This document shows, one piece after another, positions 40,849 to 45,408 of a DNA stretch of 50,723 nt. The DNA is from an uncultured Bdellovibrionales bacterium (GTDB lineage Bacteria > Patescibacteriota > Minisyncoccia > Moranbacterales > UBA2206), in assembly GCA_964547585.1 (NCBI GenBank), contig CAZJOI010000004.1:1-50723 (forward strand). The letters run 5' to 3'. The notes under the pieces are model-generated. The model saw nothing but the letters and a program-made list of their open reading frames with translations, did not search any database and had not been told where the DNA came from. A program made the position numbers and the translations under genes. Each line of letters starts with the position of its first letter. Position 1 is the stretch's first letter.

Positions 40849-40997
40849 AGCTGTTTTTATGCGGAAGCTCGAACTTTTTTTGAAAAGAATTTTTGATTTT
40901 ACGCTCGGGCGGGCAAAAAGGGAAAGGGTCTGGGAAAAGGAATTTTTGCCCGCCCTCGCTTTCCGATTCCGATTTTTCCGCCGCCGCCGAATTTCGT
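40849..40997 (+). repeat. Island-terminal 149-nt repeat (A' arm), inverted copy at 43556-43704
   Basis: Hand alignment to the reverse complement of 43556-43704 gives 141/149 identical. It contains a 13-bp hairpin gggcgggcaaaaa/tttttgcccgccc (40907-40919 with 40943-40955). Confidence 0.9.
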
Positions 40998-41039
40998 GCC
41001 AATTTCATTGGCGCGCCGCCTAAAATTTATGCAAAAACA

Positions 41040-42218
41040 CTAGGCGTTTTTTTGGTTACAAATATTTTCTATAAAAATAATGAATTTTTGACTAATACTA
41101 AAACTTTCTTCAACTTCTTTCCTTTCAAATATTTTTCCTTCATGAGCGACATCATTTCTTCTTTTCCGGGCTATCTCACGCCATCTCTTGCATTCATCGC
41201 TCTCTTTTAGAAAACCTTCTTTCTTCGCTTTTAATGCATTTGTAATCAAACATTTTTCCAATTGGATAACCCTCTTATTTGTTGTTGAATATTCACTTTT
41301 ATAATCTTCAAATAAATCTGTAATCTCTTGATCATTTTTTCCATCATCTTTAAGAAATTTTCTAAGATGGAAACTAACAGTCATATCAACAGCTGTATCA
41401 AAATCTACTATTGCTGCTTGATAATCGGCACTCAAACTAATTCTTTCAAGTCCTGAAAGTAACATTCTTCTATACGGTCTTATTTCTGATCCAGAAAGGC
41501 ATTTAAGAAAAGATTCGTATTTTGAAATATCAATCATAGGCTCTTTAATATCAGTTTTAGATACCGAAGCATATCTTCCACGAAAAAGAGGGCTATCGTC
41601 TTTTTCGCTTTTATCACCTCTCATTGGATAAGAGATGAATTTACGCCGCTCCTTTTGAAGTTTAAATAAATTTTCCGTTGGATTATTTTTTTCAGTTTCA
41701 GAAAATTCACTTATGTAACACAATGTATAAAGTGAAAAATCATCCTCTATCGACAAGAATCTATTTCTTACGCTACCAATTTGTCTATATGCGGATAAAA
41801 ATTTATTAAAAAATGAATACATGCGATTGAATGCTTTATTGCACGCGCTATCATCATGTAGGCAAAATATATCATCTGTTACAAAAACAATCTCTATTTC
41901 AGAAAAAAACCAAGGATAAATTACATGACCACCTTCGCCAGCCACGATCTGCGTGACACCTCCGTTTTCTAAGACTAATTTAAGGTAAGCACTCTTATCT
42001 GAAAAGTGTAATTTTTCTAGAAATGAACTCTCGCCAGTTCTTTCTCTTTGAACATACCTTTTATCAAAAGATTGAATGCCTTCTTTACGAAAAATCTTAA
42101 CCAAAGCAACATCTTTTTTTGGGAAAAGTGTTACTGGATAATAAAAATTGGATGAAACTCCCAAATCGAAAGGATAATCAAAAACAAATTTAATTAATCC
42201 TGAGGTTTTTTTATCCAT
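41040..42218 (-). CDS. Hypothetical protein with a C-terminal HEPN-like Rx4H motif (candidate RNase/abortive-infection effector)
   Basis: C-terminal helical region ...YQAAIVDFDTAVDMTVSFHLRKFL...RWREIARKRRNDVAHEGKIFERKEV... contains R-N-D-V-A-H, the Rx4-6H motif in the RNxxxH form typical of HEPN. The first ATG is at 42218 (MDKKTSG); the ORF-track start is a TTG. Confidence 0.6.
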   Translation of the reverse strand: MDKKTSGLIKFVFDYPFDLGVSSNFYYPVTLFPKKDVALVKIFRKEGIQSFDKRYVQRERTGESSFLEKLHFSDKSAYLKLVLENGGVTQIVAGEGGHVIYPWFFSEIEIVFVTDDIFCLHDDSACNKAFNRMYSFFNKFLSAYRQIGSVRNRFLSIEDDFSLYTLCYISEFSETEKNNPTENLFKLQKERRKFISYPMRGDKSEKDDSPLFRGRYASVSKTDIKEPMIDISKYESFLKCLSGSEIRPYRRMLLSGLERISLSADYQAAIVDFDTAVDMTVSFHLRKFLKDDGKNDQEITDLFEDYKSEYSTTNKRVIQLEKCLITNALKAKKEGFLKESDECKRWREIARKRRNDVAHEGKIFERKEVEESFSISQKFIIFIENICNQKNA

Positions 42219-42228
42219 GTAAGAAAGC

Positions 42229-42540
42229 TTAGACAAGTAATAAAACAAAAAAGAATTTGGTTGCAAAGAAAGTTATAATAACGCTCAAAACGGTAATCAA
42301 AATGGAAATACTGGGAAATAATCGCTTTAGAATAAATAATGGCATCGCAATTAAAATGCTAGTAAGAAACAATCCTCCTATTAAAAATAAAGTTGCCCAT
42401 ATCCAACCACCAACATCACCGCTCACAGTAAATACCATATAAACATATGAAATAAAAAAGACCGCCATAATTAATTTGCTAAAAGAATTGGCTTTTGCAT
42501 TATAGTCTGGCTGGCTAGATATTTGTTGTAATTTATTCAT
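42229..42540 (-). CDS. Small 3-TM membrane protein
   Basis: 103 aa with three hydrophobic segments. It ends 10 nt upstream of the next gene. Confidence 0.6.
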   Translation of the reverse strand: MNKLQQISSQPDYNAKANSFSKLIMAVFFISYVYMVFTVSGDVGGWIWATLFLIGGLFLTSILIAMPLFILKRLFPSISILITVLSVIITFFATKFFFVLLLV

Positions 42541-42568
42541 ATTTTTTAGTTTTAGTAAAAATTGATCC

Positions 42569-43409: not shown

Positions 43410-43431
43410 TTCAGCTACTTTTCAGCTACTT
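43410..43431. promoter_or_regulatory. Perfect tandem 2 x 11-nt repeat (tcagctacttt) upstream of the XRE operon; candidate operator
   Basis: Read directly. On the minus strand a TATAAT lies 7 nt upstream of the XRE ATG (ACTACTATAATATAAGTATG), which suggests a leaderless or near-leaderless transcript. Confidence 0.4.
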
Positions 43432-43555
43432 TAATGCTACACCAAAAATCAAAAATAGCAAATACAAAAGGGAGTTATTTTGCGTTGTGTGCGCAAGGGC
43501 GGGCGGGGCAAACACAACCACATATGCCTTGGTGGCGCTTTTCGCAAAGCGAAAA

Positions 43556-43704
43556 ACGAAATTTGGCGGCGGCGGAAAAATCAGAATTTGAAAGCGAGGG
43601 CGGGCAAAAATTCCTTTTCCCAGACCCTTTCCCTTTTTGCCCGCCCGAGCGCAAAATCAAAAATCCTTTTCAAAAAAAGTTCGAGCTTCTGAATAAAAAC
43701 AGCT
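43556..43704 (-). repeat. Inverted internal copy of the island-terminal repeat (A' arm)
   Basis: See 40849-40997: about 95 % identity in reverse complement. Confidence 0.9.
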
Positions 43705-43878
43705 CATTTCGGAAAATCGCATTTTTGAAAGCGCGATTTTCCATTAGTTTAGGGCTTGAAAACTCACGATTTTGTTTTGGAGAGTCCAATTCATTTGAGC
43801 GAAGCTCAAATTTGAATAAAATTCAACAGCCGATTTTTTGCATTTTCGCCAAAGGCGAAATTTCCAAATTTTCAGAGT
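43702..43878 (-). pseudogene. Fossil of a serine-recombinase 3' end (inverted copy of 45261-45402)
   Basis: The reverse complement aligns to the live recombinase 3' end: the first 86 nt are 82/86 identical, then a 36-nt indel, then patchy identity. Translation gives SENLE..KIG..NWTLQNKIVSFQALN*WKIALSKMRFSEMS with in-frame stops. Confidence 0.7.
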
Positions 43879-43932
43879 AAAAAAAGCGCCAATTTTTGTC
43901 CAAAAGCAATTTTAATAATCAAAATAAATAAT

Positions 43933-45408
43933 ATGAATCAAACCAAAAAGTATTTTATCTATGCCAGAAAATCAACTGATGAAGCAGAAAGACAAGTTTT
44001 GTCTATTGAAGCGCAACTGACTGAAGTGCGAGAATTTGCGCAGAAAGAAAACCTTTCCATTGTGCAAGAATTTGTGGAAACAAAATCAGCCAAAAAACCA
44101 GGGCGTGATGTTTTTGAAAAAATGATTTCTGGCATTGAGGAAGATGAAGCCATGGGAGTTTTAGCGTGGCACCCAGATAGATTGGCTCGAAACGCGGTTG
44201 ATGCGGGAAAAATAATAAACTTGCTTGATACTGGAAAACTGGAAATGTTAAAATTCCCCACTTTTTGGTTTGATAAAACTCCACAAGGACTTTTTATGCT
44301 TTCTATCGCTTTTGGACAATCAAAATATTACATTGATAATCTTTCTGAGAACATTAAGCGTGGACTACGCCAGAAGCTTAGAAATGGCGTTTATCCTGGA
44401 TTTGCTCCCATTGGTTACACCAATGAACTTAGAAATCACACCATCCTTAAGGACCCAGAAAATTGGCAGATTGTGAAAAAGCTTTTTGAAGAATATGCCA
44501 CTGGCAAATATTCCTTGGAGCAAATCCAGAAATTGGCGCTTTCTTTGGGCTTGATGAGCCGACGATCAAAAAAGAATTTATCACTTTCTCGAATTCAAAG
44601 AATGTTACAAAATCCTTTTTATTATGGATTGTTTCAATTCAAAAATGAAATTTATGAAGGAATTCATGAGCCAATAATTTCCAAAGAGCTTTTTGAAAAA
44701 GTGCAACGGATAATGGCGGATAAAGGAAAACCAAGAAAAGAAAAACCAAACCATAACTTTGGATTTCTGGGAATTTTCAAATGCGGAGAATGTGGACGAG
44801 GAATTACTGCTGAACAGCACATCAAAAAAAGCGGTTTGGTTTTCCGCCATTACCGTTGCACGAAAAAGAATACTGATTGCAAACAAAAATATGTGAATGA
44901 AAAAGACCTACATTTGCAAATCAATGACATTTTTCAAAAAGTTTCTTTGCCTCCTGAATGGCTGAAACCGATTTTAACAAAACTAGACGCCGAAGAAAAA
45001 GAAGCCAGCCAAAACTCGAAATCTTTCGCCCAAAATGTTGAGAAAGAAATTATGGAAATTGAAAATAAAGTTTCAAGACTTTTGGATATGCAGCTGGAAA
45101 ATACCATTTCACTTTCTGAATATAAAGAGAAGAAAGAAAAACTGCTGAACCAAAAAACGGACTTGAAGCAAAAACTTTTGAATTTTGGGCGAAAGGGAAA
45201 TTATTGGCTCGAACCCATGAGAAATTTCATTTTGTCGGCTCATCAAGCCAATTCCTTGGCTAATTCTGAAAACTTGGAAGATAAGCGAAGCTTCTTGCAA
45301 AAAATCGGCTCGAACTGGACTCTCCGAAACAAAATTGTGAGCTTTCAAGCCCTAAACGAATGGAAAATCGCGCTTTCAAAAATGCGATTTTCCGAAATGA
45401 GCGGGTAA
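43933..45408 (+). CDS. Large serine recombinase (resolvase catalytic domain, recombinase domain, zinc ribbon and coiled coil)
   Basis: N-terminal YFIYARKSTDEAERQVLSIEAQ (catalytic Ser context), ...WHPDRLARN..., a zinc ribbon CGECGRGITAEQ...YRCTKK, and a C-terminal coiled-coil. Confidence 0.9.
   Translation: MNQTKKYFIYARKSTDEAERQVLSIEAQLTEVREFAQKENLSIVQEFVETKSAKKPGRDVFEKMISGIEEDEAMGVLAWHPDRLARNAVDAGKIINLLDTGKLEMLKFPTFWFDKTPQGLFMLSIAFGQSKYYIDNLSENIKRGLRQKLRNGVYPGFAPIGYTNELRNHTILKDPENWQIVKKLFEEYATGKYSLEQIQKLALSLGLMSRRSKKNLSLSRIQRMLQNPFYYGLFQFKNEIYEGIHEPIISKELFEKVQRIMADKGKPRKEKPNHNFGFLGIFKCGECGRGITAEQHIKKSGLVFRHYRCTKKNTDCKQKYVNEKDLHLQINDIFQKVSLPPEWLKPILTKLDAEEKEASQNSKSFAQNVEKEIMEIENKVSRLLDMQLENTISLSEYKEKKEKLLNQKTDLKQKLLNFGRKGNYWLEPMRNFILSAHQANSLANSENLEDKRSFLQKIGSNWTLRNKIVSFQALNEWKIALSKMRFSEMSG

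Follow-up and report, generated by a model that had tools for sequence, protein, structure and literature searches.

The window analysed here, a stretch of 50,723 nt (contig CAZJOI010000004.1 of assembly GCA_964547585.1, from an uncultured bacterium placed in the Patescibacteriota), carries a small integrative island that is inserted at the 3′ end of a tRNA-Gly(GCC) gene and ends in the gene of a 491-aa large serine recombinase (LSR). The island belongs to a large, uncharacterised clade of LSRs inserting at the 3′ ends of tRNA genes, and it is built of two modules, one for cargo and one for the recombinase, each bracketed by its own inverted repeat. The evidence consists of an insertion polymorphism with exact breakpoints, the domain set of the recombinase, the half-site geometry of attP and attB, a layout that recurs throughout the family, and the co-evolution of the repeats within each element. 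We give a probability of about 0.85 to the integration mechanism together with the two-module architecture; the role of a second, inverted copy of the attachment site inside the island (S2) is set apart from this figure and weighed separately below.

Public contigs covering the locus were found by exact-sequence look-up, the 3D-domain protein encoded in the left flank leading to four short contigs and the ribosomal protein L19 of the right flank to longer ones. A Logan contig of the same strain (L003, SRR31966184), with a left flank identical to that of the window, reads ...GCAACTTGGAGCGGGTAACGGGAATCGAACCCGTC. That is, the left flank (...GCAACTTGGAGC) is joined directly to the tRNA side (GGGTAACGGGAATCGAACCCGTC) and the encoded CCA is restored, which is the joint that had been predicted for the empty site from the sequence of the window alone. 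L003 reaches only 23 nt beyond the core. The site is also empty, across >5 kb, in L175-L178, contigs from four assemblies (among them GCA_029567105.1) of a strain that shares 93-98% identity with the window; in these the gene for ribosomal protein L19, the tRNA array and the gene of the 3D-domain protein succeed one another without an island. In two other contigs (L001 and L002) different DNA follows the same GAGC, and in L174, which is 99.9% identical to the window on both sides, a 1,684-bp insert lies between the same two GAGC copies, its boundaries falling directly after ...TTGGAGC and directly before TGAGC-GGGTAAC. This insert (reverse complement of L174:7741-9470; also in L001 and L002) contains an abhydrolase gene and a small membrane-protein gene, has neither a recombinase gene nor inverted repeats, and could be an element in decay, or else one that is mobilised in trans. 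One locus of essentially one strain was thus recovered in three states with base-exact breakpoints, namely empty (L003), with the 4.55-kb island (window) and with the 1.68-kb insert (L174, L001 and L002). Because the breakpoints of the three alleles agree to the base, the GAGC locus of tRNA-Gly is a recurrently used attachment site.

The insert between the two GAGC copies of the window measures 4,554 bp (about 40852-45402). In this occupied state the tRNA-Gly(GCC) gene is still complete up to the discriminator base, as judged by both ARAGORN and Rfam, and only the encoded CCA is gone (the minus-strand reading ends ...TACCCGC-T-CAT); a gene for a CCA-adding-type enzyme (PolyA_pol with tRNA_NucTran2_2) is present nearby in L174, a contig of the same strain. 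The sequence-only reading had noted that the stop codon of the recombinase overlaps the tRNA gene of the opposite strand and that GAGC occurs at both junctions, and both points hold, the TAA (45406-45408) lying inside the acceptor stem. It had further proposed that a hairpin and T-run follow the reconstructed CCA; in L003 this terminator does stand directly 3′ of the tRNA CCA. Its central proposal, integration at the 3′ end of tRNA-Gly with a crossover inside GAGC, is borne out by the three alleles and by the relatives at tRNA 3′ ends described below. The coordinates of all features are collected in Table 1.

Table 1. Features of the island, its target gene and its left flank (positions in the window)
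Feature	Position	Strand	Remarks
Displaced intrinsic terminator of the tRNA operon (host DNA, left flank)	40841-40810	-	13-pair hairpin, then T-run
attL core GAGC (S1)	40848-40851	+	last identity common to the empty-site allele and the alternative insertion
A arm, element-side half of attL	40848-40997	+	P′-type half-site (TCGAAC, index 17-22 after core), T-run, GC-rich hairpin; conserved in relatives
Cargo ORF, 408 aa from TTG (~392 aa from first ATG)	41040-42266	-	no family match
Cargo ORF, 103 aa	42229-42540	-	no family match
Cargo ORF, 194 aa	42569-43153	-	no significant family match; weak match to a four-transmembrane (4TM) effector, E 0.05
HTH_3 regulator, 65 aa	43168-43365	-	divergent from recombinase; Pfam HTH_3 3.6e-18; PADLOC Control_protein and HTH_VI
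Divergent promoter-like sites	43359-43414	both	consensus matches only
A′ arm, inverted copy of A arm	43556-43705	-	inverted repeat I1
S2 core, internal inverted attP	43702-43705	-	minus strand ...TTCCGAAAT-GAGC-TGTTTTTAT...
B′ arm, inverted copy of the element's last 91 nt (recombinase 3′ end)	43702-43792	-	inverted repeat I2; in-frame stop, non-coding
LSR gene	43933-45408	+	491 aa; last two codons and stop codon from the tRNA gene
B arm, element-side half of attR, i.e. 3′ end of the recombinase open reading frame (ORF)	45312-45402	+	inverted repeat I2
attR core GAGC (S3)	45399-45402	+	
tRNA-Gly(GCC), target gene	45399-45471	-	ARAGORN; Rfam 57.9 bits

The interior of the island is organised by two inverted repeats that had escaped the sequence-only reading. 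The first of these (I1) consists of the arms A and A′, which pair over 150 nt at 95% identity and bracket the cargo (module X). The second (I2) consists of the arms B′ and B, pairing over 91 nt, again at 95%, and brackets module Y, i.e. the recombinase gene alone. The two repeats abut at GCTC on the plus strand, where they overlap by the four core bases, which gives the layout attL[A - cargo X - A′][B′ - recombinase - B]attR. Around this internal core, 231 bp upstream of the recombinase ATG, the sequence is that of the island's right end joined to its left end, and because S2 reads in this way, it is a complete attP, set in inverted orientation. The boundaries of the island as an integrated unit were correctly drawn by the earlier reading. 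The simple order of attL, cargo, integrase and attR does not describe it, a complete inverted attP being placed between cargo and recombinase. The only sequence common to attL, attR, S2 and the empty site is GAGC. Since the cores flanking each module are inverted with respect to each other, recombination between them could only invert the module, not excise it alone, and a circle formed by excision of the whole island would contain two attP sites inverted to each other. The B′ arm was also considered as the source of a small peptide, an idea rejected in view of the in-frame stop of the window's copy.

The same architecture was found in a large number of relatives. A protein search returned thousands of homologues, of which the top 120 were 53-98% identical and came mostly from Patescibacteria; 80 loci from reference genomes and 80 from metagenomes were gathered, and further ones were added by look-up. 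The two-repeat layout recurs in ~150 related loci (50-98% protein identity), mostly in Patescibacteria, and the family is also present in metagenome-assembled genomes labelled Gammaproteobacteria, Thermodesulfovibrio, Verrucomicrobiota and Omnitrophota. A cultured member of the Bacteroidota, Schleiferia thermophila DSM 21410 (L044, NZ_QPJS01000004.1), carries an element at tRNA-Ser(GCT) with an A repeat of 125 nt (100% identical) and a B repeat of 80 nt (94%), which makes it a possible system for experiments. Of the 110 loci with a scorable junction, 95 have a recombinase ORF that extends into a tRNA gene of the minus strand, the target being tRNA-Gly in close relatives and tRNA-Gln, -Ser, -Trp, -Val or -Asn in more distant ones. 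The sequence-only reading had remarked that LSRs are less commonly linked to tRNA targets than tyrosine integrases are; in the present clade such targets are no oddity, they are the rule.

The B′/B repeat (77-147 nt) was found in 140 of 162 loci, most copies being 95-100% identical, and its outer edge is the tRNA junction. The A/A′ repeat (110-410 nt) was found in most loci with enough upstream sequence, its right copy abutting B′ and its left copy lying 1.3-9 kb away. S2 keeps a near-constant position: it separates the cargo genes from the divergently transcribed recombinase gene, and in nearly all loci its inner edge falls ~30-400 nt ahead of the ATG of the latter. In one decayed relative (L006:4942-5014 and 7590-7613) the A′ arm breaks off 19 nt past the core, and a left A arm is missing; an unoccupied tRNA-Gly(TCC) gene with its own terminator lies 2.6 kb leftward in the same locus.

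The 491-aa protein contains a Resolvase domain (PF00239, 1.1e-22, residues 8-153), a Recombinase domain (PF07508, 6.2e-17) and a zinc beta-ribbon (Zn_ribbon_recom, PF13408, 6.3e-7), and its N terminus shows the motif YARKST, as in resolvase-type catalytic domains with a serine nucleophile. It matches a PHROG integrase family at 1.7e-78, and the nearest solved structure is the C-terminal domain of the A118/LI integrase (4KIS, residues 213-315, E 1.3e-7). All the LSR features that were looked for are present, i.e. the catalytic domain, the recombinase domain with zinc beta-ribbon, short att sites and a 5-bp half-site shift (see below). Identity to recombinases in phage and plasmid collections did not exceed ~28%, and viral contigs gave a single match at 45%, so that the clade has no close relative among the phage and plasmid records searched. 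Exact-protein look-ups found neither the recombinase nor the 359-aa protein of the right flank on record.

The att sites follow a common geometry in the family. The shared core always lies at the boundary between the discriminator base and CCA, and reads GAGC for Gly, GCTG for Gln and GCGG for Ser targets. On the tRNA side it is followed by the T-arm motif (T)TCGAAC, with CGAAC at index 13 after the core, and the A arm contains the same motif with CGAAC at index 18. This offset of +5 was scored in 71 of 88 loci by a simple regular expression; in the loci with other offsets, among those listed individually, the expression had caught an earlier chance match and the true T-arm motif was again located at 13. 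The 18 versus 13 arrangement was seen in the subfamilies with Gly, Gln, Ser, Val and Asn targets, and applies to the right half-sites. Rutherford et al. (2013, PMC3783163) showed for the LI/A118 integrase that the distance of the zinc-ribbon-domain motif from the centre is 5 bp shorter in attB than it is in attP. Because the +5 offset matches this shift, the A arm behaves as a P-type half-site imitating the T-arm, and S2 has the make-up of a real attP. A central dinucleotide GA was also considered on grounds of half-site symmetry; it is suggested by the window and L007, and is unsupported by the subfamily consensus of the left half-site.

The two copies of each repeat have evolved together. 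Among 33 non-redundant elements, the median identity was 100% both for A versus A′ and for B versus B′, compared with 79% (A) and 88% (B) to the nearest other element, and the closest relative of an arm was its own partner in 32 of the 33 elements for A and in 29 of the 33 for B. The inner boundaries of the A repeat are conserved among the window, L005, L007 and L010, and the two copies of L007 share variants specific to that element. The window itself is an exception, in that its attL arm is 99.3% identical to the S2 arm of L005 and only 94.7% identical to its own S2 arm, a pattern that points to exchange between elements. The co-evolution of the copies would fit gene conversion, and equally selection for pairing between the copies.

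The orientation of the modules is nearly fixed. In 33 cargo modules, 35,208 aa are encoded on the minus strand, i.e. opposite to the recombinase, versus 1,775 aa on the plus strand; 28 of these modules are wholly opposite to the recombinase and none is wholly on the other strand. This strand bias indicates that cargo orientation is constrained. The recombinase module, for its part, is essentially never inverted (at most 2-4 of ~165 loci). A natural inversion of the cargo was found in elements from sister metagenomes that all encode the recombinase P0002, without any difference, and share their host flank (99.8% identity), the cargo of L169 and L172 being turned round relative to that of L170 and L168: L169 matches the opposite strand of L170 at 100% over 1,073 nt, and the switch point falls inside the 126-nt A arm. 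Since the arms are identical, homologous recombination and action of the recombinase are indistinguishable as the cause of this flip. Minus-strand matches at cargo ends in three other pairs (L072/L149, L050/L068 and L110/L154) fit either flips or a shift of the repeat boundary and were left uncounted, and contigs ending 175-460 nt upstream of the ATG, which had been considered as signs of inversion, are explained by assembler breaks inside the A′ repeat.

A plus-strand tRNA gene just upstream of the recombinase gene was seen in four loci (L056, L071, L094 and L130). In two of them the recombinase cassette lies between two convergent tRNA genes and is joined to them at the core (L094:7773-9772, between two Gly(TCC) genes; L130:9706-11531, between Gln(CTG) and Gln(TTG)). 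This is the arrangement that would be expected as the product of recombination between S2 and a second attB, an event that would turn round the stretch of chromosome between both sites and leave the cargo behind at another place; a spare chromosomal attP is a plausible driver of inversions between tRNA genes. Tandem arrays were found in L058/L151, L087 and L108, where the A-type arm of another element comes next after the B arm and core (in L058 the tRNA-Ser gene lies 6.6 kb further on), so that an occupied attR is still a usable target. These loci had been candidates for circular forms, the 3′ end of the recombinase gene meeting an A-like arm, and were reassigned because the arm always belonged to a different element.

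From these data we infer the following course of integration, in which the 491-aa recombinase would catalyse the insertion. The protein would bind attP, made up of the B arm, GAGC and the A arm, and attB, made up of the terminator side, GAGC and the acceptor and T-arm of the tRNA gene, the T-arm TCGAAC of tRNA-Gly acting as a B′-type half-site. Both duplexes would be cut inside the shared GAGC, and the halves would be swapped and religated. The products would be attL (40848) and attR (45399), with a tRNA gene intact to its discriminator base and a recombinase ORF ending inside it. Only recombination of attL with attR could release the whole element, presumably as a circle.

As to S2, we tentatively favour, at somewhat less than even odds, a role as an attP that is bound by the recombinase and whose main function is that of an operator, placed between the cargo genes and the divergently transcribed recombinase gene, a reading modelled on the position of res between tnpA and tnpR in Tn3. 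Gene conversion would keep S2 identical to the outer arms, and S2 could still recombine with a tRNA attB, which would cause occasional rearrangements. A number of observations weigh against the integration scheme or against this role for S2. The chief weakness of the operator reading is that an operator needs only ~50 bp, whereas the repeats extend over 77-410 nt, the length being left to gene conversion. The best sigma-70 match of the window (43359-43387, plus strand, TTGACA-17-TAGAAT, 11/12), which is located in X and directed through S2 towards the recombinase gene, is a consensus match only. If S2 were as active as the attP formed by excision, the opposite orientation would be expected half the time, and it is essentially absent; at most L056 and L071 could represent integration through S2, and both contigs end inside the recombinase gene. 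Neither a circle junction nor an excised form was found among ~180 loci, a circle junction being expected to show >91 nt of recombinase ORF before ...CCGAAATGAGC joined to TGTTTTTATGCGG and then the left end of X. Apart from the recombinase gene, none is common to the whole family, the cargo differing between elements, and hence no conserved gene for a recombination directionality factor (RDF) is evident. Moreover, no clear motif is shared by the two left half-sites (B arm and host terminator side), and the central dinucleotide is not assignable.

Alternatively, S2 might be mainly a second working recombination site, regulation being secondary. The circle with two attP sites would then behave like the donor in recombinase-mediated cassette exchange (RMCE), allowing double crossovers between tRNA genes, exchange of cargo and inversion of modules. 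Such a function is possible, though we think it rather improbable. It would account for the recombinase cassettes joined at the core between convergent tRNA genes (L094 and L130), for the inverted cargo of L169/L172 versus L170/L168 and for the very variable cargo between conserved arms, and inverted attP pairs are standard in engineered cassette exchange. However, with 95% of the cargo on one strand and the recombinase running into the tRNA gene nearly always, S2 integration and flipping must be rare or selected against; canonical serine integrases recombine only attP with attB (PMC3783163); and the flips can be explained by homologous recombination between repeats of 126-150 nt. The likeness to the yeast 2-micron plasmid (FLP/FRT) and to the engineered designs with inverted attP sites (phiC31 RMCE, MiMIC) resides in two inverted sites that split a circle into two unique segments, so that inversion isomers and insertion of a cassette by double crossover are possible. 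The differences are that the recombinase is of another class than FLP, that no replication genes are present, that orientation is near-fixed, and that the exchange designs are man-made. A 2-micron-type plasmid was rejected on these grounds, there being no replication gene among the window's cargo and the cargo of relatives consisting mostly of restriction-modification systems.

It is also conceivable, although unlikely, that the internal inverted attP replaces an RDF in cis, either by engaging recombinase subunits at attL and attR or by folding a single strand into a double-stranded attP, and so enables exit or re-integration. If true, this would be a new form of directionality control and of spread in bacteria living by DNA uptake. 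The second of these routes can be formulated more specifically: a single-stranded copy of the element would fold into a dumbbell in which B.core.A pairs with A′.core′.B′, yielding a double-stranded attP of 240-540 bp, as in the attP of CTXphi or the attC of integrons. The single strand would come from uptake by natural competence or from replication intermediates, and annealing with mismatch repair would explain the perfect repeats. That both repeats, when circularly permuted, form one contiguous inverted duplication of the whole attP region is in keeping with this, as are the median identity of 100% within elements, the co-variation of arms between elements and the lack of a conserved RDF. 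On the other hand, serine recombinases cut both strands of both partners, and the chromosome would be left linear with hairpin ends; gene conversion alone accounts for the co-variation; and the cargo holds no genes for single-stranded replication or transfer, nor is there direct evidence of a single-stranded stage. The odds of the dumbbell are accordingly long. As known systems, folded single-strand attachment sites of the CTXphi attP and integron attC type do not apply, the enzyme here being a serine and not a tyrosine recombinase, even though the island does appear to have the folding potential.

That the island is an invertible phase-variation switch, its recombinase mainly flipping the cargo (through the A arms) or its own gene (through the B arms) and the link to tRNA genes being incidental, is very improbable. 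Inverted repeats do bracket both modules, one natural cargo flip is documented, and a flip in the window would uncouple the recombinase from the promoter match that aims at it through S2; yet presence and absence alleles at the exact core prove insertion, the cargo is strand-biased, flips of the recombinase module are nearly absent, and the enzyme is a 491-aa LSR of the integrase type and not a small Hin/Gin invertase. A Hin/Gin-type system was likewise rejected, the orientation of both modules being nearly fixed though inverted sites exist. The remaining alternative, an ancestral island without site-specific integration whose shorter alleles arose by deletion at the GAGC microhomology, or else a chimeric assembly of the window, could appeal to the mere 4 nt of GAGC and to the short reach of L003 past the core, and can practically be dismissed in view of the independent assemblies L175-L178 that are empty across >5 kb, the intact tRNA with CCA and terminator in the empty allele, the same tRNA-relative junction in ~100 unrelated genomes with different tRNAs, and an arm that mimics the T-arm with the 5-bp offset typical of attP.

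Islands at tRNA genes are classically the domain of tyrosine integrases. Islands of that kind (P4-like, Islander/TIGER type) resemble the present family in their insertion at the tRNA 3′ end with the tRNA still functional, in their defence and restriction-modification cargo and in forming tandem arrays at one tRNA gene, as seen here in L058, L087 and L108. They differ in the class of the recombinase, in duplicating a 3′ segment of the tRNA gene, compared with 4-8 nt here, and in the position of the crossover, which here lies at the boundary of discriminator base and CCA, with the encoded CCA lost in the window. The large serine integrases of phages and of integrative and conjugative elements (A118/LI, phiC31, Bxb1, SPbeta) share with the family the resolvase catalytic, recombinase and zinc ribbon domains, a short identity between attP and attB (4 nt), a distal half-site motif lying 5 bp further out in attP, and a recombinase gene at the edge of the element. 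Unlike these, the present recombinase targets a tRNA 3′ end, its ORF ends in the tRNA gene, its identity to any phage or plasmid recombinase is at most ~28%, no conserved RDF accompanies it, and a second, complete inverted attP is kept.

TnpX and TndX (Tn4451, Tn5397) and CcrAB (SCCmec) are LSR-type enzymes of small elements with a circular form, no separate RDF and a 2-bp crossover at the ends, which brings them close to the present system. Identity is at most ~25% (tndX matches), however, and those elements have neither bracketing inverted repeats nor an internal copy of the joint, and their targets are not tRNA genes. The res sites of Tn3 and gamma-delta are similar in that a site for a serine recombinase lies between divergent genes and is a candidate for both crossover site and operator. 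They differ in being directly repeated copies that resolve cointegrates, with a small resolvase and accessory subsites, whereas S2 is a full attP copy inverted relative to the functional ends, with a putative function in binding and repression. An insertion sequence or transposon with terminal inverted repeats was rejected, since the family inserts site-specifically, at tRNA 3′ ends, and since each outer arm (A or B) has its inverted partner at the internal site and not at the opposite end of the element.

The literature searched contained no description of the clade or of natural elements with inverted attP sites, inverted attP pairs appearing only in engineered cassette exchange. An internal, inverted and co-evolving attP beside the recombinase gene is thus apparently an undescribed architecture. 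Serine integrases are major tools of genome engineering, and the logic of their att sites is thought to be well understood; the family offers ~100 matched natural attP/attB pairs for testing the half-site model. Furthermore, it places elements with restriction-modification and defence cargo in the Patescibacteria, for which hardly any mobile elements or genetic tools have been described.

The cargo is highly variable between the conserved arms. The 65-aa helix-turn-helix (HTH) protein of the window resembles the control (C) proteins of restriction-modification systems, and in the closest relatives the cargo consists of restriction-modification systems with an HTH control protein adjoining S2: Eco57I, DNA methylase and RE_Alw26IDE in P0001 (98% identical), and a HindIII-type enzyme with an N6_N4 methylase in P0002. 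An HTH gene adjoining S2 is found in the window's subfamily and in some others; it is not universal, and was rejected as a conserved regulator or RDF. Ahead of the HTH gene of the window lies a minus-strand match (CTGAAA-17-TATAAT), which is a consensus match only. No RNA family of Rfam matched the arms. A function of the A arm as directional terminator or insulator was also rejected, a scan for hairpins with T-runs in 88 arms having shown no bias (28 outward versus 32 inward), although one subfamily does have a textbook terminator in this arm.

Several other features of the surrounding tRNA genes were noted. Owing to a 45-nt direct repeat (96% identical; 45684-45728 and 45761-45805), the 3′ half of tRNA-Leu(GAG) is present once more 77 nt downstream, and a 20-nt inverted repeat (45733-45752 and 45842-45861) brackets this tRNA gene; these repeats may be the scar of another integration event or a structure for pre-tRNA processing. 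Between tRNA-Leu(TAA) and tRNA-Cys the window has a free-standing ORF for an HNH endonuclease (39350-39823, 157 aa). The blocks that match 39210 and 40023 are ~270 nt apart in the related strain (L175-L177), as against ~810 nt in the window, so that the HNH gene is apparently absent there. Finally, the match of the window to L174, otherwise 99.9% identical, and to L175-L178 ends at 49141/49142, where tRNA-Val(CAC) has its 5′ end, or no more than a few bases away. Past this point a signal peptidase gene follows in the window versus the gene for the CCA-adding-type enzyme in L174, a divergence that could reflect a rearrangement, another variable site or an assembly join.

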